Assembly (NCBI GenBank): GCA_037444665.1 | Contig: JBBILZ010000040.1 | Coordinates: 1 to 22,451, forward strand | Reading direction: 5' to 3' | Origin: a candidate division WOR-3 bacterium | Lineage (GTDB): Bacteria; Hydrothermota; Tepidihabitantia; SM23-42; JAOAFX01 | Length of the DNA: 22,451 nt | Shown: positions 3,938-13,263 of the stretch, piece after piece | How the letters are laid out: each line of letters begins with the position of its first letter | How positions within the stretch are numbered: position 1 is the first letter of the stretch | Program-made: the position numbers and the translations under genes | Notes under the pieces: generated by a model | What the model was told of the DNA's origin: nothing | The model's database searches: none | What the model saw: only the letters and a program-made list of their open reading frames with translations

Positions 3938-5089
3938 TTGTCAATCCTCTGCAACATTGGTTGTAAGTTAAATCAGTACGAAGGCTACTGTTTGCATGAA
4001 AAACTTCGCACAGAAAGCAGGGTAGTAATTGTCAATACCTGTTGTGTAACGCACGAAGCTGAAGTCAAATCATTAAAAAAATTTCGGCAGGCAAAAAATT
4101 TATACCCCGGTCACAAAATCATTGTCACCGGATGCCTTGCCCAGTTAAAACCCGAACTTTTTAATAAGTATCAGGTCATTCGTCTTGAGGAACGCAATGA
4201 AATAATAAGAGAAACCTTCCCCTTACCTGATAAATCAAGATACTTTCTTAAAATTGAAGATGGGTGTAACCAACCCTGCACTTTCTGCGTTGTTTCCAGA
4301 TTACGGAAAAATATTGTGAGTAAACCTGTGGAAAAAATCAAACAGGAAATCATCTGGGCGTATGATAATAGATTCAAAGAGATTGTTCTTGTTGGTGCTA
4401 ATATTGGTTTATACGGACTTGACCTTGACATATCACTTATTCAATTAATCAAGGTTATTTCAAAAATGGAAAACCTGCCACGAATCAGGTTATCTTCTTT
4501 AGAGCCGAAATTTATAAACTCTGAATTGATTGCCGCACTCAAAGACCTGCCGTTTTGCCGACACTTCCATATACCAATCCAGAGCAGCGACGACAAAATT
4601 ATTCAACTTATGGGGCGTTCTTACCGGCGACAAGATTTGATAAACATTTTTGAACTCATCATAAAAAATTTCTATGATGTTGCAATTGGTGCTGATGTTA
4701 TTGTTGGATTTCCTGAAGAGACTGAGTTTGAATTTAATAATACTTATGATTTAATAAAATCATCTCCACTCACCCATTTACACATTTTCCCATATTCACC
4801 AAGACCCATAACCCCGATCTACAGACTGGGTGACACAGTCCCTTTAACTGAAAAAAAGAGAAGATTGTGGACTTTAAAACAGCTGATTGCAGAAAAAAAT
4901 TATCTGTTCAGATGCAGTCAGAAAAATAAAATTGTCAAGGTGATAATTGAGAAAAAAAATAATATAGTTACAGGCTTGACCGATAACTACCTCCGTGTGA
5001 ATATAGATGGGCAATATTCGGAAAAAGAATTGTTAAATGTAAAAATTGTAAAAGTTACACAAAAAGAAGTTTTCGGTATGGTCGTATAG
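3938..5089 (+). CDS. mtaB: tRNA methylthiotransferase, MtaB-like (radical SAM)
   Basis: UPF0004 cysteines (GCKLNQYE, NTCCVT, TGC), radical SAM CNQPCTFC, RIRLSSLEP, HLHIFPYSPR, TRAM-like end (GLTDNYLRV). TTG start, with an in-frame TAG at 3923 just upstream. Confidence 0.82.
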   Translation: MSILCNIGCKLNQYEGYCLHEKLRTESRVVIVNTCCVTHEAEVKSLKKFRQAKNLYPGHKIIVTGCLAQLKPELFNKYQVIRLEERNEIIRETFPLPDKSRYFLKIEDGCNQPCTFCVVSRLRKNIVSKPVEKIKQEIIWAYDNRFKEIVLVGANIGLYGLDLDISLIQLIKVISKMENLPRIRLSSLEPKFINSELIAALKDLPFCRHFHIPIQSSDDKIIQLMGRSYRRQDLINIFELIIKNFYDVAIGADVIVGFPEETEFEFNNTYDLIKSSPLTHLHIFPYSPRPITPIYRLGDTVPLTEKKRRLWTLKQLIAEKNYLFRCSQKNKIVKVIIEKKNNIVTGLTDNYLRVNIDGQYSEKELLNVKIVKVTQKEVFGMVV

Positions 5090-5092
5090 AAT

Positions 5093-6370
5093 ATGTACAG
5101 ATTCTATATCAAAACCTTCGGTTGTCAAATGAACAAAAATGATTCCGATTTGATACAAGCAATACTACTTGAGGAAAACTATATTCCTGTAAAAAATACT
5201 AAAGAGGCAGACATAGTCTTAATCAATACCTGCTCTGTAAGGGAGCATGCTGAACAAAGGGCACTCGGTTATATTTCAACTTTAAAAAAATGGCGTATGC
5301 AAAATGGAATAGCACTCGGTGTGATTGGATGTATGGCAAAACATCTTGAAAATAAAATTATTAATAAATTTCCATTTGTTGATTTTATTCTCGGGCCTGA
5401 TTCATATCGTAAAATACCTGAATATCTTAAATTAATTACGCATCAAAGAACAAAGGTCATTGATACAACTGTGGGCACAGAATTATACGAAGGTATCTGC
5501 AGAAATTCAAATAAGGTAGCAGATTTTGTTTCAATAACCCGTGGTTGTAGTAATTACTGTTCGTATTGCATAGTCCCTTTTGTGCGTGGCGAATTGCGTT
5601 CAAGACCGGTTGAAGATATTTTAAATGAAGTGGCACACCTTGTAGGTTCAGGTGTGAAAGATATCACCCTTTTAGGTCAGAATGTGAATGAATATTCTTA
5701 TAAAGGAATAAATTTCCCTGAACTTCTAAAACTCATTGCCCAAAAGAGCGGCGTGTTCAGATTGAGATTTCTCACTTCACATCCCAAGGACTTTGATGAA
5801 GAAACAATAAATGTAGTAAAAGAGAACAAAAACATCTGTGAGTGGTTTCACCTACCTTTGCAATCAGGAAATAATAGAATATTGAAATTAATGAACAGAA
5901 AATATACAAAGGAAAGTTACATAGAACTCATAGAAAAAATTAGAAAATATATTCCTTTTGCAACTGTCACAACAGACATAATCGCTGGTTTTCCAACTGA
6001 AACTGAACAAGAATTTTGTGAAACGATTGAAGTCGTGAAAAAAATTGAATTTGATGATGCCTATATGTATCGTTATTCAATCCGTCCCGGGACAAAGGCA
6101 AGCGAATTCCAGCCGCTGACCGAAAAAATCATAAAAGAGCGGCTAAGAATCCTCATTGATATTCAGAACCAGATTGTCATAAAAAAAACAGAACAGATGA
6201 TTGGTAAGACTTACGAGGTTCTGTTTGAAGGAGAGGCAGAAAATGGTACAAGAGGCAAGACCCGGGGAAACAAGGATGTCATTGTAGAAAATGCGATTCC
6301 ATCTGGTTCAGTAAAGAATATTTTAATAACAAAGGTGCGGGGCAGGACCCCCATCGGTAAAATAGTTTGA
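5093..6370 (+). CDS. miaB: tRNA (i6A37) methylthiotransferase MiaB
   Basis: TFGCQMN..DS, NTCSVREHAE, GCSNYCSYCIVPFVRGE.RSR, LLGQNVN, RLRFLTSHP, C-terminal TRAM domain. Confidence 0.93.
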   Translation: MYRFYIKTFGCQMNKNDSDLIQAILLEENYIPVKNTKEADIVLINTCSVREHAEQRALGYISTLKKWRMQNGIALGVIGCMAKHLENKIINKFPFVDFILGPDSYRKIPEYLKLITHQRTKVIDTTVGTELYEGICRNSNKVADFVSITRGCSNYCSYCIVPFVRGELRSRPVEDILNEVAHLVGSGVKDITLLGQNVNEYSYKGINFPELLKLIAQKSGVFRLRFLTSHPKDFDEETINVVKENKNICEWFHLPLQSGNNRILKLMNRKYTKESYIELIEKIRKYIPFATVTTDIIAGFPTETEQEFCETIEVVKKIEFDDAYMYRYSIRPGTKASEFQPLTEKIIKERLRILIDIQNQIVIKKTEQMIGKTYEVLFEGEAENGTRGKTRGNKDVIVENAIPSGSVKNILITKVRGRTPIGKIV

Positions 6371-6393
6371 AAAATATGGAACCTATCGCTGTC

Positions 6394-6421
6394 TTGACTT
6401 TTCTTTTATTTTCATTATTCT
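6394..6421 (+). promoter_or_regulatory. sigma70-like promoter of pcm (predicted leaderless transcript)
   Basis: TTGACT (6394-6399), 16 bp, TATTCT (6416-6421); GTG start follows 6 nt later with no SD. Confidence 0.65.
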
Positions 6422-6427
6422 ATTTAA

Positions 6428-7093
6428 GTGATTGAGGTTAAAGAATGGCGTCTGGAAAGGGAGCGAATGGTTCAGGAACAAATCATTGCACGGGGCATTA
6501 AAGACGAGCGGGTGATTGATGCAATGTTGCGTGTGCCAAGACATCTATTTGTTGATAAAACTTATTATCATCAGGCATATAATGATTACCCACTGCCGAT
6601 TGGCTGCAGCCAGACAATATCCCAGCCCTATATGGTAGCAGTGATGACCGAATTGCTTGAATTAAAGGGGAATGAATCGGTTCTTGAAATCGGCACTGGT
6701 TCAGGTTATCAGGCAGCAGTCCTTGCCCTGCTCTGTGCCAGGGTCTTTACAATTGAGAGAATTTCTGAACTGAGTTTCCGTGCACGAAAAATTCTTTCTG
6801 AGCTTGGTTTTAACAACATAAATTTTCTGGTCGGTGATGGAAGTCTTGGCTGGCCTGAGTTCGCACCCTATGATGGTATCATTGTAACTGCTGGTGCACC
6901 AGAAATGCCCAGACAATTGGTTAACCAATTAACAGATAAAGGGAAAATGGTGATACCGATTGGCGGTGAATATTTTCAGACTTTGAATGTTATTAAAAAA
7001 CACAGGGGTTCTATTCTGCGTAAGCAACTTTTTGATTGCTCATTCGTGCCTCTGCTTGGTAAAGAAGGCTGGAATAATAATTCTGGAGTATGA
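6428..7093 (+). CDS. pcm: Protein-L-isoaspartate(D-aspartate) O-methyltransferase
   Basis: VPRHLFV, QTISQPYMVA, VLEIGTGSGYQAAVLA, GDGSLGWPEFAPYD.IIVTA, FVPL.G. Confidence 0.95.
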   Translation: MIEVKEWRLERERMVQEQIIARGIKDERVIDAMLRVPRHLFVDKTYYHQAYNDYPLPIGCSQTISQPYMVAVMTELLELKGNESVLEIGTGSGYQAAVLALLCARVFTIERISELSFRARKILSELGFNNINFLVGDGSLGWPEFAPYDGIIVTAGAPEMPRQLVNQLTDKGKMVIPIGGEYFQTLNVIKKHRGSILRKQLFDCSFVPLLGKEGWNNNSGV

Positions 7094-7150
7094 TAGTTTA
7101 TATTATCGTGAAAGTGGATGCGGAATTTAATCTGATAAGGCAAAACCTTG

Positions 7151-7224
7151 CGGGGTGTAGCGCAGTGGTTCAGCGCGCATGGTTCGGGACCATGAGGTCG
7201 TGGGTTCAAATCCCACCGCCCCGA
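7151..7224 (+). tRNA. tRNA-Pro (anticodon CGG), CCA not encoded
   Basis: Acceptor stem CGGGGTG/CGCCCCG, D stem GCGC/GCGC, anticodon stem CATGG/CCATG with loop TTCGGGA (CGG at 7185-7187), T stem GTGGG/CCCAC with loop TTCAAAT, discriminator A. Confidence 0.95.
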
Positions 7225-7236
7225 AATAAATAAGGA

Positions 7237-7352
7237 AGGTCGTGGGTTTTCCGTTTCTATCATTAAAAAATACTATTATATTTTTAAGGAAACGGAATCC
7301 TCGTTCCGCTCACAACAGGAGCGGAACGGGACAAATCCCACCGCCCCGAAAT
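7237..7352 (+). repeat. Duplicated 3' portion of tRNA-Pro interrupted by an 83-bp palindromic insert
   Basis: 7237-7248 is identical to 7195-7206 (AGGTCGTGGGTT) and 7332-7352 is identical to 7207-7227 (CAAATCCCACCGCCCCGAAAT). The intervening 7249-7331 forms two hairpins. Confidence 0.85.
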
Positions 7353-7358
7353 TAAAAG

Positions 7359-7820
7359 ATGATAAATAAAACAATTATTGCAGTAATTGGTGGAGCAGAA
7401 ACAACTCAAAAAAACCTCAACATTGCCGAAGAAGTTGGTGCCTTACTTGCAAATAATGGCGCAATTGTAATAACCGGTGGTCTTGGTGGCGTAATGGAAG
7501 CAGCATCAAGAGGTGCAAAGCAAGCAGGTGGACTTGTAATCGGTATCTTGCCCGGTACTGATAAGCGTATGGCAAACGAATATGTTGATATTCCCATTGT
7601 TACGGGTATGAACCAGGCACGCAACATTATCATTGCCCGCACTTGTGATTGTGCCATTGCAATTGATGGAAAATACGGAACACTCTCAGAAATCGCATAC
7701 TGTTTAATGTTCAATGTTCCAGTGATTGGTATCAACACCTGGGATATTGATGCACCAATAATCAAGGCAAAATCGGCAAAAGAAGCAGTGGCAAAGGCAT
7801 TTGAGGTAATTGAGCATTGA
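7359..7820 (+). CDS. TIGR00725/LOG-SLOG family Rossmann-fold protein
   Basis: IAVIGG, ITGGLGGVMEAASRGA, IGILPG, TGMNQARNIII, GKYGTLSEI. Confidence 0.88.
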   Translation: MINKTIIAVIGGAETTQKNLNIAEEVGALLANNGAIVITGGLGGVMEAASRGAKQAGGLVIGILPGTDKRMANEYVDIPIVTGMNQARNIIIARTCDCAIAIDGKYGTLSEIAYCLMFNVPVIGINTWDIDAPIIKAKSAKEAVAKAFEVIEH

Positions 7821-7835
7821 AAACGGAGCAATTGT

Positions 7836-8105
7836 ATGCATGCTGAAATCATAGTCCAGGGCGTGGTGCAGGGAGTGGGTTATAGATATTTTGCTATGCA
7901 CAAGGCAAAGGAATATGGCATCACTGGTTATGTTCAGAATCTTCCTGATGGAAATGTATTGGTGGTTGCCGAAGGTGAAAAAGGTGTACTCAATGATTTT
8001 ATAAAAGAATTGAAAATAGGACCCGCCTCAGCCCATGTTACAAAGATTGACATTGAATTTTCAGAAAATATGACAGGATACAAAAATTTCAGTGTCAAAT
8101 TTTAG
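7836..8105 (+). CDS. acyP: Acylphosphatase
   Basis: 89 aa; VQGVVQGVGYR, GYVQNLPDGNV..VAEG, GP..A.V. Confidence 0.93.
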   Translation: MHAEIIVQGVVQGVGYRYFAMHKAKEYGITGYVQNLPDGNVLVVAEGEKGVLNDFIKELKIGPASAHVTKIDIEFSENMTGYKNFSVKF

Positions 8106-8142
8106 TATTAAAATAATGGTCAAAATCCCTTAAGGAGGAAAC

Positions 8143-8952
8143 ATGGATGACATATCGTCAATCATTGAGTCAGTAAAGGCATCAATCGTGGTCATAAGGT
8201 TGCCCAATGAAGGTAGGGGCAGCGGATTCTTTGTAAATGATAAAGGACTATTTATTACAAATAAACACACTGTTGCGCTGGATACCTTTATCACAACAAA
8301 ACTTTATAATAATCAAGAAGTTGAATCAATTGTAGTCTATGCAGATAATGATGTTGACTTTGCATTTTGTCTGGCAAGTGTCAATGAATCCACTCCAATC
8401 CCTCTTGCTAACAGTGATTCAGTTAAAGAAGGTGAACCTGTTGTAGCAATTGGCCATCCGTATGGATATGACTTTACTGTGTCTAAGGGAATTATCAGTT
8501 GTAAAAAGCGCGCGGTTAAGGGCATTAACTATATCCAGACCGATGTTCCGATAAACCCGGGTAATAGTGGTGGGCCATTGATCGATATGCAGGGCAAAGC
8601 CATCGGTATAAACACCTGGGTTGTTGGTGAAGCGGATAATATGAGTTTTGCAATTCCTGTCAATGCAATAAAAGATATATTGAATTACTTAAACAGCGTC
8701 CATAACCAGCTCCCAACAATGTATTATTGTCCAATCTGTGGTTATCTCAGCGATAAATTCATTAATACATCCAAGGCTGAATACTGTATAAATTGCGGGA
8801 CACAGAGGATAGAAAAGAAAAAGCAATCTGTAGAACAACCAACAGATACACCGGTCCAAAAAGTCAAAGTAGCAATGAAGGTCTGCCCCAAGTGCAAAGC
8901 ATCAAACGATGCTTCGGCGAATTTCTGTAAAAATTGCGGATCTAAATTTTAG
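8143..8952 (+). CDS. Trypsin-like (S1C-type) serine protease with two C-terminal zinc ribbons; no signal peptide, no PDZ
   Basis: GSGFFV, TNKHTV (His), DVDFA (Asp), IQTDVPINPGNSGGPL (Ser); CxxC pairs CPIC/CINC and CPKC/CKNC; SD AAGGAGG upstream. Confidence 0.9.
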   Translation: MDDISSIIESVKASIVVIRLPNEGRGSGFFVNDKGLFITNKHTVALDTFITTKLYNNQEVESIVVYADNDVDFAFCLASVNESTPIPLANSDSVKEGEPVVAIGHPYGYDFTVSKGIISCKKRAVKGINYIQTDVPINPGNSGGPLIDMQGKAIGINTWVVGEADNMSFAIPVNAIKDILNYLNSVHNQLPTMYYCPICGYLSDKFINTSKAEYCINCGTQRIEKKKQSVEQPTDTPVQKVKVAMKVCPKCKASNDASANFCKNCGSKF

Positions 8953-8960
8953 GAGGAAAA

Positions 8961-9416
8961 ATGTTTAGCAAAAAACAAACACCTGAAAAACAGAATGGAG
9001 AGGTAGATATTGCCTATTACGAGAAGATGGTCAATGACCTACTCACAAGTTTCGGTCTTGACCCTGAAAAATGCCGGCATAGACCAAAAACATTGTGGTC
9101 TGCGTATCGTGGCTCAGCCTTAATCTATACTGAAATCTTCAAATTGGACAATATAGATTATATTGAAATCTCCTGTCCGATAATGCTTTTGCCATCCCGG
9201 AATCTTTTACCATTCTACAGAAGATTACTTGAGATAAATTTTCAATTGATGGGTATTAAATTCTTTGTGCGCGACCAGTGGGTCTATATTGCTGAAAATA
9301 GAGAATTGAAGGGATTGAATTTTGAAGAACTCAAGGCAATGGAAGAACGAGTGAGTTATCATGCTGACCGTCTGGATGAACAACTAATTGAAGAATTCAA
9401 AAGCAGAACTGACTGA
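8961..9416 (+). CDS. YbjN/type III secretion chaperone-like domain protein
   Basis: 151 aa, acidic; W...RGSA.I, 'FYRRLLEINF', C-terminal helix 'ADRLDEQLIEEF', a pattern typical of the YbjN/CesT fold. SD AGGAGG (8951-8956) overlaps the protease stop. Confidence 0.7.
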   Translation: MFSKKQTPEKQNGEVDIAYYEKMVNDLLTSFGLDPEKCRHRPKTLWSAYRGSALIYTEIFKLDNIDYIEISCPIMLLPSRNLLPFYRRLLEINFQLMGIKFFVRDQWVYIAENRELKGLNFEELKAMEERVSYHADRLDEQLIEEFKSRTD

Positions 9417-9425
9417 GTAATATAT

Positions 9426-10379
9426 ATGAAGATTAGCCTTAAAATTATTCCTGCTACACTCGCAATTTTATTCTTTTTGCAAACAAATTTTGCCCAGGAA
9501 CAGGAGCCAAAAATAGTATACACGGGTATTTATTTGAACCAGATTACCAGTCTGAGTCTGAAAGACAATCAATATACTGCTGATTTTTACATCTGGTTTC
9601 GCTGGAAAGACAAAAATATAAACCCATTGGAAAGTTTTGATGTAGTAAATGGACATATAGAATCAAAAGAAGGGATATACGAGGATATTGTCCAGGGTTC
9701 TAACTATGGAGTCTGTCGTGTTGTCGCAACAATAAAAAAATTCTGGAATATTTCACGGTTTCCCCTGGATAACCATACATTAACGATTGAAATAGAAGAC
9801 AATGATAATGAAGAATCTAAATTAAAATATGCACCTGATACTGAAAATAGTGGAGTAGATCTTCAGGTGCAGGTACCAGGGTGGAAAATAGACACTGTCA
9901 ATGTAAATGTTGTAAGTCATACATATAAGACAAATTACGGTGATATTTCGCTGCCGACAAATAATGAATCAATATATTCACGGTTTGTCTTTTCACTGAA
10001 TATTGTTCGCCCCGGCTACGGCTATTTCTTCAAATTATTCTTCACTGTGTTTGTTGCCGCAATTGTTGCATTGATAGCATTATTCATAAAACCAACAGAC
10101 CTTGACCCGAGATTTGGACTTGGTGCAGGAGCATTATTTGCTGCGGTTGCGAGTGAAGTTGTCATTGCCTCTTTACTTCCTGATACAAACATTATTACAC
10201 TCACGGACAAACTCCACATTCTATCTATCTTCTTCATTTTCTTATCAATCGGAGAATCTATCATTTCATTAAGACTATTTACAAGTGGAAAAGAGAAAAC
10301 CTCACAAAATCTTGATAGAATTTGTTTCTTTATATTTATAGTAGCCTATTTTATCCTGAACCTTATTTTTCTGCTTTAA
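9426..10379 (+). CDS. Prokaryotic pentameric ligand-gated ion channel (GLIC/ELIC-like Pro-loop receptor)
   Basis: Signal peptide, beta-rich ECD (YTADFYIWFRWKD, FPLDNHTLTIEIE Pro-loop, GWKI), pre-M1 Arg (IVRP), four TM helices with M2 PRFGLGAGALFAAVA, LP loop and M3 TLTDK. Confidence 0.85.
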   Translation: MKISLKIIPATLAILFFLQTNFAQEQEPKIVYTGIYLNQITSLSLKDNQYTADFYIWFRWKDKNINPLESFDVVNGHIESKEGIYEDIVQGSNYGVCRVVATIKKFWNISRFPLDNHTLTIEIEDNDNEESKLKYAPDTENSGVDLQVQVPGWKIDTVNVNVVSHTYKTNYGDISLPTNNESIYSRFVFSLNIVRPGYGYFFKLFFTVFVAAIVALIALFIKPTDLDPRFGLGAGALFAAVASEVVIASLLPDTNIITLTDKLHILSIFFIFLSIGESIISLRLFTSGKEKTSQNLDRICFFIFIVAYFILNLIFLL

Positions 10380-10390
10380 AGGAGGCTTTG

Positions 10391-10903
10391 ATGGATTTGA
10401 AAGAATTTGTCAGGGATATTCCTGATTTTCCCCAAAAAGGGGTGATGTTCAGGGATATTACAACCCTTATAAAAGAACCAGCAGCATTTAAATATGTTAT
10501 TGATAGCATCGTGAACAGATACCGCAATGCAAAGATTGATAAGGTGGTATCAATTGAGGCGCGCGGTTATATCTTTGGTGGCGCCATTGCTTATAATCTA
10601 AATTGTGGCATTGTGCCGGTCAGAAAACTTGGCAAACTACCTGCCGAAACAGTAAGAATGGAATACGACCTTGAATACGGTAAGAGTATTATTGAAATTC
10701 ATAAAGACGCTATAGAAAAAGGTGAGAATGTTTTATTATTTGATGATGTCCTGGCAACTGGTGGAACAATGCTCGCCGCCTGCAAACTTGTTGAGATGCT
10801 CGGTGGCAATGTCATCGCCTGCGCTTTTGTTGCAAATCTAACGTATCTATCTGGTAGCCAAAAACTAAAAGGATACGAGATATACTCGCTGATTGATTAT
10901 TAA
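10391..10903 (+). CDS. apt: Adenine phosphoribosyltransferase
   Basis: Start moved to ATG 10391 after SD AAGGAGG (170 aa); RDIPDFPQKGVMFRDITTL, EARGY, RKLGKLP, YDLEYG, PRPP motif VLLFDDVLATGGT. Confidence 0.95.
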   Translation: MDLKEFVRDIPDFPQKGVMFRDITTLIKEPAAFKYVIDSIVNRYRNAKIDKVVSIEARGYIFGGAIAYNLNCGIVPVRKLGKLPAETVRMEYDLEYGKSIIEIHKDAIEKGENVLLFDDVLATGGTMLAACKLVEMLGGNVIACAFVANLTYLSGSQKLKGYEIYSLIDY

Positions 10904-10930
10904 TTAAAATTAAGTAAATAATTGTTTAAT

Positions 10931-11944
10931 TTATTTGATAAGAATATAAAAATAAGTGATAAAAAGGAATATGATTAAAATTAAAAGAATAATTAATAGA
11001 AAATATATTCCTGTATTACTCTTTTTTTTCTTTTTCTTTTTGGCTGTTCCTTTAACAACAGTTGTCACTTCTCTCTGTTCTTCTATCTGATTTAATAACT
11101 TTTCAATATTATCCTCAACCATTGCCTGACCCTTCCAGCCAAGAAAATTGTTCAATGCTCTGAGCATTTCCTCTGCAGATTTGTAGCGACTCTTGGGATT
11201 CCTTTTCATCGCCCGATTGATTATCCTGCTCAGACGCCAGCTATGGTGGGGGTCAAGCCAGAATGGTGACCTGTATTGCCCACGGCAAATCTTTGTTATG
11301 ATACCTTGATTCTCTTCTGCAACAAAAGGCTTCTTGCTGGTAACCATCTCATAAAGAACCACGCCTAAGGAAAAAATATCGGTCTGAAAACCAACCTTAC
11401 CACCACCTGCCTGTTCAGGTGACATATAAAAAGGCGTGCCAATAATTGCACCGGTCGTTGTCAAATCCGGTGCATCAATATCCCGTGCTACACCAAAATC
11501 GGTCAATTTCACAATCCCTTCTTTAGAAATCAGGATATTTTTAGGTTTTATATCACGATGGATAATTCCATTCTTATGAGCACAGACCAGTGCCTTACAT
11601 ACTTCACGGGCAATAGAAGCAGCAATTATAGGATGCAATGGTGCCTGTTTCTCTATCACATCAGCAAGGTTCAGCCCTTCAATATACTCCATTACCAGAT
11701 AATGTCCACCACCCTCACGAAAATAATCATAAATTTCAACAATGTTTCGGTGGTGAAGATTGGCACATATCTTTGCTTCCCTTTTGAATCTTGTCTGAGC
11801 TTCACCATCAAGATTCTTCATCATCTGTTTTATTACTACAATGCGGTCAAGCGAACCCTGTATTGCAGTATAAATGTGCGCCATACCACCCTTACCAATG
11901 GGTTTGAGAATCTTATAATTACCAATGGTTGAATTCTTATTCAT
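10931..11944 (-). CDS. Hanks-type Ser/Thr protein kinase with C-terminal membrane anchor
   Basis: GKGGMA, VVIK, HRDIKPKN, DFG, activation loop DLTTTG..IGTPFYMSPEQ; poly-Lys then one hydrophobic helix at the extreme C-terminus; no extracellular PASTA or sensor domain. Confidence 0.93.
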   Translation of the reverse strand: MNKNSTIGNYKILKPIGKGGMAHIYTAIQGSLDRIVVIKQMMKNLDGEAQTRFKREAKICANLHHRNIVEIYDYFREGGGHYLVMEYIEGLNLADVIEKQAPLHPIIAASIAREVCKALVCAHKNGIIHRDIKPKNILISKEGIVKLTDFGVARDIDAPDLTTTGAIIGTPFYMSPEQAGGGKVGFQTDIFSLGVVLYEMVTSKKPFVAEENQGIITKICRGQYRSPFWLDPHHSWRLSRIINRAMKRNPKSRYKSAEEMLRALNNFLGWKGQAMVEDNIEKLLNQIEEQREVTTVVKGTAKKKKKKKSNTGIYFLLIILLILIIFLFITYFYILIK

Positions 11945-12899
11945 TTGCTATCACCACACAATTTCTTCCCCGTGCTTTTGCCTGGTAAAGTGCCTGGTCT
12001 GCCCTTTTTATCAATTCCTGCGTATTTATAAACTCATTTACATCGGTCGCCACACCAATACTTACTGTCACCTTTATGCCGATAATCTGTTTAGATTTTT
12101 CTTCAATAATCTTGCGAATCGTCTCAGCAATCATTTTTGCATTATAAACATCCATATTAGGAAAAATGATAACAAATTCCTCACCACCGTATCGTGCAAC
12201 AATATCGTCCTTTCTACATAAGGCGCGAATAATATGTGCCACCCCCCTTAAAACTTCATCACCTTTATCATGGCCCAATGTATCATTCACTTTTTTGAAA
12301 TGGTCAATATCAACAAAGAGTAATGATAGCGGATAATGCTTGCGATGTGCCTCAAGAAATTTCTCCTCAAAAACTTTATCAAAATAGCGCCGATTATAAA
12401 GGTCAGTCAACCGGTCAAAATTTGCTTGCTTTGTCAATTTTTTTCTACTCTTGAGCACCTTTTCGTGGTACTTTTTTAAACTTAAGGCAATATCCCTTTC
12501 TCTTATCTTCTCGGCAAGTGATTTATATTCCGCAATTAAACGCTGGGTTTCATTACCACCTGATTCAGCCTGTGTTTCATCATAAATACCTTCAATCCCT
12601 CTGCCATCATCAAAAATAATTGTAAAATTTCCAATATTGATTTCATCGCCGTGTCGCAATTCTATTGTATCTATTCTTTTGCCATTTACGAATGTGCCAT
12701 TAGTGCTCTTCAAGTCTTCAATTATAAATTTACCATCTTTATAATAGACCCGTGCATGCTTGCGTGAAACTTCTTTGCCATCAATTAAAAAATCACATTC
12801 ATTTGCTCTGCCAATGATATATTCCTGTCTTTCAATGGGTAGACTCTTTAACAGGATTCGCTCATCAATCAAAACAAGGGATGGTTTACCATCAGCCAT
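11937..12899 (-). CDS. FHA domain-GGDEF diguanylate cyclase
   Basis: Start moved to ATG 12899 (MADGKP..., 320 aa) because the longer ORF overlaps rpsT and spans two promoters. FHA motifs IIGR, VSRKHA, DLKSTNGTFVNG; coiled coil; DRLTDLYNRR, DIDHFKKVNDTLGH..GD, RKDD I-site and RYGGEEF. Confidence 0.9.
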   Translation of the reverse strand: MADGKPSLVLIDERILLKSLPIERQEYIIGRANECDFLIDGKEVSRKHARVYYKDGKFIIEDLKSTNGTFVNGKRIDTIELRHGDEINIGNFTIIFDDGRGIEGIYDETQAESGGNETQRLIAEYKSLAEKIRERDIALSLKKYHEKVLKSRKKLTKQANFDRLTDLYNRRYFDKVFEEKFLEAHRKHYPLSLLFVDIDHFKKVNDTLGHDKGDEVLRGVAHIIRALCRKDDIVARYGGEEFVIIFPNMDVYNAKMIAETIRKIIEEKSKQIIGIKVTVSIGVATDVNEFINTQELIKRADQALYQAKARGRNCVVIANE

Positions 12900-12906
12900 T
12901 AACTCA

Positions 12907-12934
12907 AGTATAACAATATTTATTTCAAAGTCAA
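12907..12934 (-). promoter_or_regulatory. sigma70-like promoter of FHA-GGDEF/kinase operon (leaderless or near-leaderless)
   Basis: Minus strand TTGACT (12934-12929), 16 bp, extended TGn-TATACT (12912-12907); ATG follows after 7 nt with no SD. Confidence 0.75.
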
Positions 12935-12963
12935 GCCAGAAACGATTGCCTGCAACAAAGTAG

Positions 12964-12991
12964 TTGACTTTTTTTATTTTTTTTATATAAT
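12964..12991 (+). promoter_or_regulatory. sigma70-like promoter of rpsT (predicted leaderless)
   Basis: TTGACT (12964-12969), 16 bp, TATAAT (12986-12991); ATG 12997 follows after 5 nt with no SD. Confidence 0.78.
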
Positions 12992-12996
12992 TGACC

Positions 12997-13263
12997 ATGC
13001 CAATTAAGAAAAGGTCAAGAACGGTTCTTAAGAACATTCGCAAATCGCGACGGCGCTATTTGATGAATCTTAAAAAGAAAAAAGAGTTGAAATCTGCAAT
13101 CAAAAAGATAAGGAAAGCAGAGTCAAAAAAAGAGGCGCTGAAGCTTCATCCTGGGGTTCAGGCAGTAATTGATAAATCGGTTCAGGATGGTATTATTAAA
13201 AAGAATACTGCTGCCCGCTACAAGTCAAGATTAGCGAAGTTCATAGCAACCAGACTCAAATAA
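12997..13263 (+). CDS. rpsT: 30S ribosomal protein S20
   Basis: 88 aa, very basic; MPIKKRS..., N...K..LKSAIKK, IDKSVQDGIIKKNTAARYKSRL. The track's TTG at 12991 overlaps the -10 box, so ATG 12997 is preferred. Confidence 0.92.
   Translation: MPIKKRSRTVLKNIRKSRRRYLMNLKKKKELKSAIKKIRKAESKKEALKLHPGVQAVIDKSVQDGIIKKNTAARYKSRLAKFIATRLK

Follow-up and report, generated by a model that had tools for sequence, protein, structure and literature searches.

HtrA proteases are extracytoplasmic quality-control and signaling enzymes that are controlled by PDZ domains, and in DegS and DegP the PDZ domain is the peptide-binding module that controls a trypsin-fold protease. Here we describe a locus in which an HtrA-like protease without a PDZ domain is encoded directly upstream of a small YbjN-like protein, whose predicted fold is that of chaperones of type III secretion systems (T3SS). 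The locus lies in contig JBBILZ010000040.1 of assembly GCA_037444665.1, from a candidate division WOR-3 bacterium; the whole stretch of 22,451 nucleotides was analyzed and is called the window below. A preliminary description of this DNA, made from the sequence alone, had combined the two genes with a third, encoding a pentameric ligand-gated ion channel (pLGIC), in a single module.

The family of the second protein has structural precedents. A YbjN homologue of known structure, 2PLG, folds like a T3SS chaperone, the YbjN-like protein DR1245 has a dedicated protein partner in DdrB, and T3SS chaperones themselves hold one dedicated partner through an extended segment, as set out in the available part of PMC3575483. 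The accessible text of PMC9503650 traces the first definition of TY-Chap1 to ADP-ribose conflict systems. Our search of the available literature found no paper on a YbjN protein paired with a trypsin- or HtrA-type protease, and public databases go no further than the labels 'trypsin-like peptidase domain-containing protein', 'serine protease Do' and 'YbjN domain-containing protein'.

The protease and the YbjN-like protein

The protease gene (8143–8952, + strand) is an open reading frame (ORF) of 269 codons that family searches assign to the HtrA-like serine proteases. In Pfam the protein matches Trypsin_2 (E = 4.9e-28) together with DZR and Zn_ribbon_3, the last of these at residues 245–269 (E = 5.9e-8). 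No PDZ family is matched at E ≤ 0.01, and the C-terminus is formed by two zinc ribbons. The NCBIfam model degP_htrA_DO (TIGR02037) is matched with E = 4.3e-49 over the core only, residues 23–184, and at 167.6 bits the match lies far below the cut-off of 416 set for the full-length family. The closest structures in the PDB are those of MucD, DegP, HtrA, HhoA and HtrA2, with E values between 8e-30 and 1e-22.

From the TIGR02037 match, the protease domain extends over residues ~23–185 (8209–8697, +), and alignment places the catalytic triad at H42 (codon 8266–8268), D72 (8356–8358) and S142 (8566–8568), all on the + strand. Zinc ribbon 1 follows, with C196/C199 and C215/C218 (8728–8796, +), and then, after a lysine-rich linker, zinc ribbon 2, with C248/C251 and C262/C265 (8884–8937, +). 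In 18/18 aligned relatives, drawn from several phyla, neither the three catalytic residues nor any of the eight cysteines in the four CxxC pairs varies. The preliminary description had reported an intact His/Asp/Ser protease with four CxxC pairs that lacks both a signal peptide and a PDZ domain, and each of these features holds in the alignment, the Pfam searches and the hydropathy analysis.

Hydropathy, a simple test rather than a dedicated signal-peptide predictor, reveals no transmembrane (TM) segment or signal peptide in the protease. The highest 19-residue value is 1.14, and the N-terminus leads directly into the catalytic core. By the same measure there is no hydrophobic segment in the YbjN-like protein, or in the fused form of the two that is discussed below. 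The absence of a PDZ domain, a signal peptide and a membrane anchor, and the presence of Cys4 ribbons, argue that the protease is cytoplasmic. As far as can be judged from the sequence, it is a soluble protein with an HtrA-type (MEROPS S1C-like) catalytic domain, in which two Cys4 ribbons stand in place of a signal peptide and PDZ domain that were probably lost.

The gene for the YbjN-like protein, which we take as the partner of the protease, follows at 8961–9416 (+) and encodes 151 amino acids. Its match to the Pfam family PF22551 (TY-Chap1) has E = 0.0068 and scores 16.5 bits, against a cut-off of 27. The profile of its family matches 2plg with E = 4.7e-14. The AlphaFold2 model, with a predicted local distance difference test (pLDDT) score of 89.2 and a predicted template modeling (pTM) score of 0.81, has the α-β3-α-β2-α topology of T3SS chaperones, as described in the available part of PMC3575483, with helices at residues 17–30, 82–95 and 121–146 and strands at 45–50, 53–62, 65–76, 100–104 and 107–115. 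Foldseek matches this model to 2plg, SpcU, ExsC, SycT, E. coli YbjN (6vu7), AmyR, CesT and DR_1245. Among the 120 homologues listed for the protein 63 carry PF22551 and/or PF10722, its nearest Atlas clusters are TY-Chap1/YbjN (score 0.95), and a PHROG search returned no match. The protein is thus modeled with the YbjN/T3SS-chaperone fold, in agreement with the assignment made earlier from its sequence.

The two genes are separated by 8 nt. The TAG stop codon of the protease gene overlaps the Shine–Dalgarno (SD) sequence of the YbjN gene, TAGGAGGA (8950–8960, +), an overlap that had been noticed before and can be read directly from the sequence. This arrangement, and the short gaps found between the two genes elsewhere, suggest that the YbjN gene is translationally coupled to the protease gene.

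Distribution of the pair and of its fused form

All statements that a gene was not found in a genome refer to the genomes searched; the samples are dominated by metagenome-assembled genomes (MAGs), and close kin are not independent observations. The YbjN gene is matched in 14 of 61 related genomes of candidate division WOR-3. Twelve of these, including that of the window, have the protease gene followed by the YbjN gene, one (G017) has a single ORF of 363 amino acids that combines the two, and one (G010) is degenerate. The YbjN gene therefore lies directly after the protease gene in 12/12 intact cases. These pairs cover three families within one order, and they occur in four flanking contexts, namely between acyP and apt in the genus of the window, behind a TMEM43-like membrane protein in another family (three genomes), with pyrimidine genes in G012 and with an M1 peptidase in G019.

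In the window the borders are acyP on the left, encoding an acylphosphatase (7836–8105, +; PF00708, E = 1.9e-25), and on the right a gene for an apt-like phosphoribosyltransferase (10391–10903, +; PF00156, E = 8.1e-16, and synteny). In G001 and G004, which are 96 and 98% complete, acyP and apt flank only BNR and FG-GAP proteins sorted by the type IX secretion system (T9SS). Since other cargo is found there, the acyP–apt interval is a variable slot. A second comparison is provided by G021, in which the order is a 205-aa protein, TMEM43 and M23; in its congeners G018 and G040 the pair separates TMEM43 from M23. The precise presence or absence of the pair between close relatives shows that it behaves as an autonomous two-gene cassette that is cleanly gained and lost.

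The degenerate case in G010, a member of the genus of the window, is a second, divergent and decayed copy at another locus (L026:4299–6255, G010:C75). An internal deletion in its protease joins 'AIT' to 'NPGSSGGP', there is a frameshifted ORF with three zinc ribbons, and two HEAT-like ORFs come next, followed by a YbjN-like ORF of 135 amino acids. In four assemblies a contig break coincides with a cassette border or lies within ~200 nt of one (L015 at the end of G008:C15, and L017, L025 and L163 at the starts of G006:C13, G019:C4 and G003:C99). The breaks are a contig end 10 nt upstream of the protease start, and contig starts inside the protease, 190 nt before the protease and 106 nt before the pLGIC gene. 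They could reflect strain-level presence and absence within the sampled populations.

TMEM43 was considered as a conserved third partner and rejected. It occurs in 8/61 genomes, beside the pair in three, without the pair in four and unlinked to the fusion in G017, and thus five of its eight genomes lack the adjacency. TMEM43 was not found in the genome of the window, although control genomes also gave no signal for this family.

The pair extends well beyond this order. A pattern scan using one genome per species provided 80 loci with YbjN relatives from other assemblies, and in 22 of them a trypsin gene lies directly upstream of the YbjN gene, with a transposase in between in L081. Fifteen of the 22 come from groups other than WOR-3, namely Fischerbacteria, five Anaerolineae/Aggregatilineales, four Binatia (one transposase-interrupted), Cytophagia, Desulfuromonadaceae, Pyrinomonadaceae, Gemmatimonadales and a Burkholderiales MAG. 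The gaps between the two genes in these other phyla range from −4 to ~10 nt.

Some further neighbors of the pair are specific to single lineages, and were not retained as partners: DUF445, upstream in two Binatia loci, and a Ser/Thr kinase, convergent with the pair and downstream of it in three Anaerolineae loci. In the Binatia loci (L079:3337–4785 and L093:3284–4741) the co-oriented DUF445 membrane protein that precedes the pair has ~480 amino acids. In the Burkholderiales MAG (L068:1349–6339) the YbjN homologue comes after a 996-aa protein that has a trypsin domain at its C-terminus, and directly upstream of this protein stands an SngB-like (Shango) ATPase (E = 3.6e-174). This arrangement is possibly a defense-linked variant of the pair.

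The YbjN profile also finds longer proteins, and 57/57 of these contain a trypsin domain. They are 347–380 amino acids in length, mostly 360–368, with one of 273. We aligned 27 of the 57 with 12 fusions derived from the loci, giving 39 rows. All 39 have a trypsin domain, one invariant Cys4 ribbon that is the equivalent of ribbon 1 in the window, and a C-terminal YbjN domain that occupies the position of zinc ribbon 2 of the window protease. The fused YbjN domain has motifs in common with the YbjN-like protein of the window, namely W..GSA, P..Y..LL..N (LLxxN) and AD..D..L (ADxxD); W46, G51-S52-A53, N93 and D136 belong to the conserved surface of the latter protein. The canonical NPGNSGGP motif around the catalytic serine is absent in 6/39 rows, although at least four of the six still have an aligned serine. 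Of 251 sampled Bacteroidota genomes, 16 carry the fusion. Modeled with AlphaFold2, the fusion scores pLDDT 92.6 and pTM 0.88 across its full 363 residues, and its protease domain matches AlgW, DegS, HtrA1/2, DegQ and DegP, with an rmsd of 2.3–3 Å on DegS, HtrA1 and AlgW. Because the protease, one ribbon and the YbjN domain are fused in relatives, we infer a complex between the two proteins of the window.

In Bacteroidota the system has an additional component. A gene that we call X, encoding 386–463 amino acids, precedes the protease gene in 13/17 loci (12 fusions plus the split pair L149), and does so in G017 as well. The N-terminal domain of X is YbjN-like; a hidden Markov model of the window family matches 11/14 X proteins, and the profile of X matches only the YbjN gene in the window's genome (E = 2.8e-6). 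Having a second ribbon and one free YbjN protein but no X, the window therefore appears to hold a minimal version of the system. The X proteins (L133–L149; L027:6591–7892) have a helical tail of ~230 amino acids that matches no Pfam family, and their invariant residues include G79, S80, R110, P144, K146, D159, D162, D163 and G237. At one of the 17 loci recX lies directly downstream of the fused protease gene on the same strand (L133:2711–3178).

The ion channel gene and the surrounding genes

The pLGIC gene (9426–10379, +) follows the YbjN gene after 9 nt and encodes 317 amino acids. The protein matches Neur_chan_LBD (PF02931) with E = 1e-7 and 32.1 bits, above the cut-off of 26, and GLIC over residues 105–315 with E values of 4e-9 to 1e-6. 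There are four hydrophobic TM segments, at 203–221, 232–250, 256–281 and 299–317. The earlier identification as a GLIC/ELIC-like channel is thus correct, and in its ligand-binding domain match, four TM helices and GLIC-like length it is an ordinary member of the prokaryotic pLGICs (GLIC, ELIC, sTeLIC). No feature distinguishes it from known members, and its neighborhood differs in every genus examined.

ORF coordinates and flanking families agree with three co-oriented genes between acyP and apt, with gaps of 8 and 9 nt, as had been described. At the edges of the trio, acyP is 37 nt from the protease gene and the pLGIC gene 11 nt from apt. The whole region from miaB to apt is densely packed, and the trio is therefore not singled out by its short gaps. 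On inspection, strong SD sequences are seen at the protease, YbjN and apt genes; an SD-like sequence was looked for at the pLGIC start and none was seen. A promoter and terminator scan of 6300–11100 gave promoter-like sites only at chance level, and the gene junctions were uninformative.

The pLGIC gene adjoins the pair in 5 of the 12 intact-pair genomes, all from the genus of the window. By direct search a pLGIC is present in 10/61 genomes; among the 12 pair genomes it is linked in five, unlinked in two (G012 and G046) and not found in the other five. In G012 and G046 the pair and the pLGIC gene are on different contigs with unrelated neighbors, which for the pLGIC are sugar-nucleotide genes, a ComB-like phosphatase and LysO, or a PNPOx gene. 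Two genomes of the window's own genus have no pLGIC beside the pair, with apt directly after it in G009 and a BNR gene in the place of the channel in G006. Their YbjN proteins are 92% and 90% identical to that of the window, closer than those of the pLGIC-bearing G011 (86%), G005 (83%) and G002 (81%). This points to loss of the channel with retention of the pair. No pLGIC was found at any of the 15 pair loci outside WOR-3 or at the 17 fusion loci, and a literature search on pLGIC gene neighborhoods returned nothing relevant.

These data bear on the proposal that protease, YbjN and pLGIC act jointly, at least in this genus, coupling membrane ion flux or ligand sensing to proteolysis. The genes are contiguous in an order kept in five genomes of the genus, 7 of the 10 pLGIC genomes also carry the pair, and elsewhere the pair follows other membrane proteins, TMEM43 in three genomes and DUF445 in two Binatia loci. 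However, the co-occurrence is confounded by kinship, the TMEM43 adjacency fails in five of eight genomes, and the pLGIC gene lacks the SD sequence that its neighbors have, while the spacing to acyP and apt is equally tight. The distribution goes further and largely refutes joint action, as the genomes with the closer YbjN proteins retain the pair without the channel, the two are on separate contigs in G012 and G046, and the channel is absent from every pair locus outside WOR-3 and from the fusion loci. We regard such a three-part system as very improbable. What stands of the sensor–adaptor–protease trio originally put forward is the coupling of protease and YbjN, a pair that recurs across lineages; the link to the pLGIC is restricted to one genus and is not kept across lineages. 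The reservation made at the time, that the channel might be an unrelated neighbor, is favored by this distribution. It looks like a separate gene that landed in the variable acyP–apt slot in one genus, and we place it outside the module. The locus gives no functional clue to the physiological role of bacterial pLGICs.

Other genes of the region are as follows. An SLOG cluster4 (LDcluster4) gene (7359–7820) directly upstream of acyP is kept in all members of the genus examined, and tRNA-Pro(CGG) lies between pcm and this gene (7151–7224), ~900 nt ahead of the cassette. Two MiaB-like radical-SAM methylthiotransferase paralogues, of 383 and 425 amino acids, are encoded in tandem at 3938–6370, and the tandem is kept in relatives. 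On the other side (10931–13043, − strand) the gene for a Ser/Thr kinase with a lysine-rich stretch and a C-terminal hydrophobic tail overlaps that for an FHA-GGDEF diguanylate cyclase by 8 nt. These two are likely to be a signaling pair leading from phosphothreonine to cyclic di-GMP, and they are syntenic in G008 and G006.

Proposed role and comparison with known systems

The reading that we favor, with somewhat more than even confidence, is that the two genes are a cassette for a cytoplasmic HtrA-type protease and a YbjN peptide-binding adaptor or regulator that acts in trans, the PDZ domain having been replaced by the ribbons and YbjN. The two proteins would bind physically, and the YbjN subunit would take the role of the PDZ domain, capturing extended or unfolded stretches of client proteins and/or switching the protease on. 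Docking would fall to the zinc ribbons. The outcome would be selective cytoplasmic proteolysis, in quality control or in regulated degradation.

Several observations weigh against this assignment. In 58 of the 80 loci the YbjN homologue has no adjacent trypsin gene, and a recurrent partner was sought for these 58 homologues and none found. Use of the YbjN fold is therefore wider, and it does not depend on a protease. The Anaerolineae versions of the pair are divergent, with weak trypsin matches and no ribbon detected. A quick domain tree, in which deep support is only 78, does not group the split YbjN of WOR-3 with the fused clade, and the fusion may therefore have arisen in parallel instead of being directly related. 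Finally, the patchy spread of the pair and its clean insertion or deletion between close relatives would suit an accessory or conflict cassette no less than a factor for proteostasis.

A conflict or defense cassette is the main rival explanation. Here YbjN would act in the manner of a chaperone or antitoxin, keeping a latent ribbon protease inactive until infection or stress triggers cleavage of host or invader proteins. The precise junctions in G021 compared with G018 and G040, and in G001 and G004, speak for such an element, as do four contexts within one order and a degenerate second copy in G010. A SngB-like ATPase stands beside the pair in L068 and a TIR-HEAT protein lies downstream in L052, but these are the defense-like neighbors of only 2/22 pair loci, the window and most other loci being of housekeeping character. 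The protease domain resembles RT-Protease_XI of PADLOC (E = 1.2e-18), and TY-Chap1 came originally from ADP-ribose conflict systems in the accessible text of PMC9503650. However, PADLOC 2.0 has no model for YbjN, X or the pair, it assigned no defined system to the trio proteins and gave nothing for YbjN or the pLGIC, and its protease matches reflect generic domain similarity. A PHROG search with the three proteins likewise gave nothing beyond generic protease-domain matches, and none for YbjN, and in Bacteroidota the fused form and X are stably placed beside ordinary genes. The possible defense role raised in the preliminary description thus finds no direct support, and we consider a conflict cassette unlikely, if by no means negligible.

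We think it less likely again that YbjN is a folding or assembly chaperone of the protease, or its substrate, rather than a substrate receptor, for example by binding the lysine-rich linker between the ribbons. That linker is of low complexity in the split protease, the two genes appear to be translationally coupled, and T3SS chaperones hold a single dedicated partner through an extended segment (in the available part of PMC3575483). Against this, it would be strange for a substrate, or for a helper that acts only transiently in folding, to be joined to the protease permanently by a covalent fusion, and the model of the fusion is a single compact body predicted with confidence (pTM 0.88). A bolder proposal, which we rate as the more doubtful still, is a new class of cytoplasmic, ATP-independent, self-compartmentalizing protease. 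A trimeric HtrA core and dimeric YbjN modules would form client-capturing cages, analogous to the 12- and 24-mers of DegP with the T3SS-chaperone fold in place of the PDZ domain, and serve in stress or conflict as an effector that has dedicated targets. YbjN would be joined in cis in Bacteroidota and in trans here, through the second zinc ribbon. The patchy, insertion- and deletion-like spread would then reflect use as an effector, and the targets in this genus might include the cytoplasmic loops of the channel.

If the protease–adaptor reading is right, a widespread cytoplasmic branch would show a second way to gate a trypsin-fold protease, through ribbons and a secretion-chaperone-like domain in split or fused form, and the large and functionally obscure YbjN family would gain a concrete role as a protease adaptor or regulator. 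The split WOR-3 form provides a convenient two-protein system in which this could be tested.

Compared with the S1C proteases DegP, DegQ, DegS, AlgW, MucD and HtrA1/2, the catalytic domain of the window protease is the same in sequence and fold, with the triad intact. It differs in having no PDZ domain, signal peptide or anchor and in ending in two Cys4 ribbons, and its peptide-binding module would be a YbjN/T3SS-chaperone fold supplied by a separate gene. The YbjN-like protein has the family and predicted fold of YbjN and the class I T3SS chaperones (E. coli YbjN 6vu7, AmyR, Tll0839 2plg, DR1245, CesT, SycE; PF10722, PF22551), although it scores below the Pfam cut-off, no secretion system is involved, and its partner is a protease. 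The closest relatives in composition are the fused trypsin–zinc-ribbon–YbjN proteases, which have the same three building blocks and motifs and the same cytoplasmic, PDZ-less HtrA-type core. In the window these are divided between two genes, a second ribbon stands in the place of the YbjN domain, and X is absent. To the fused form the window adds a split version with a double ribbon, and turnover as a cassette.

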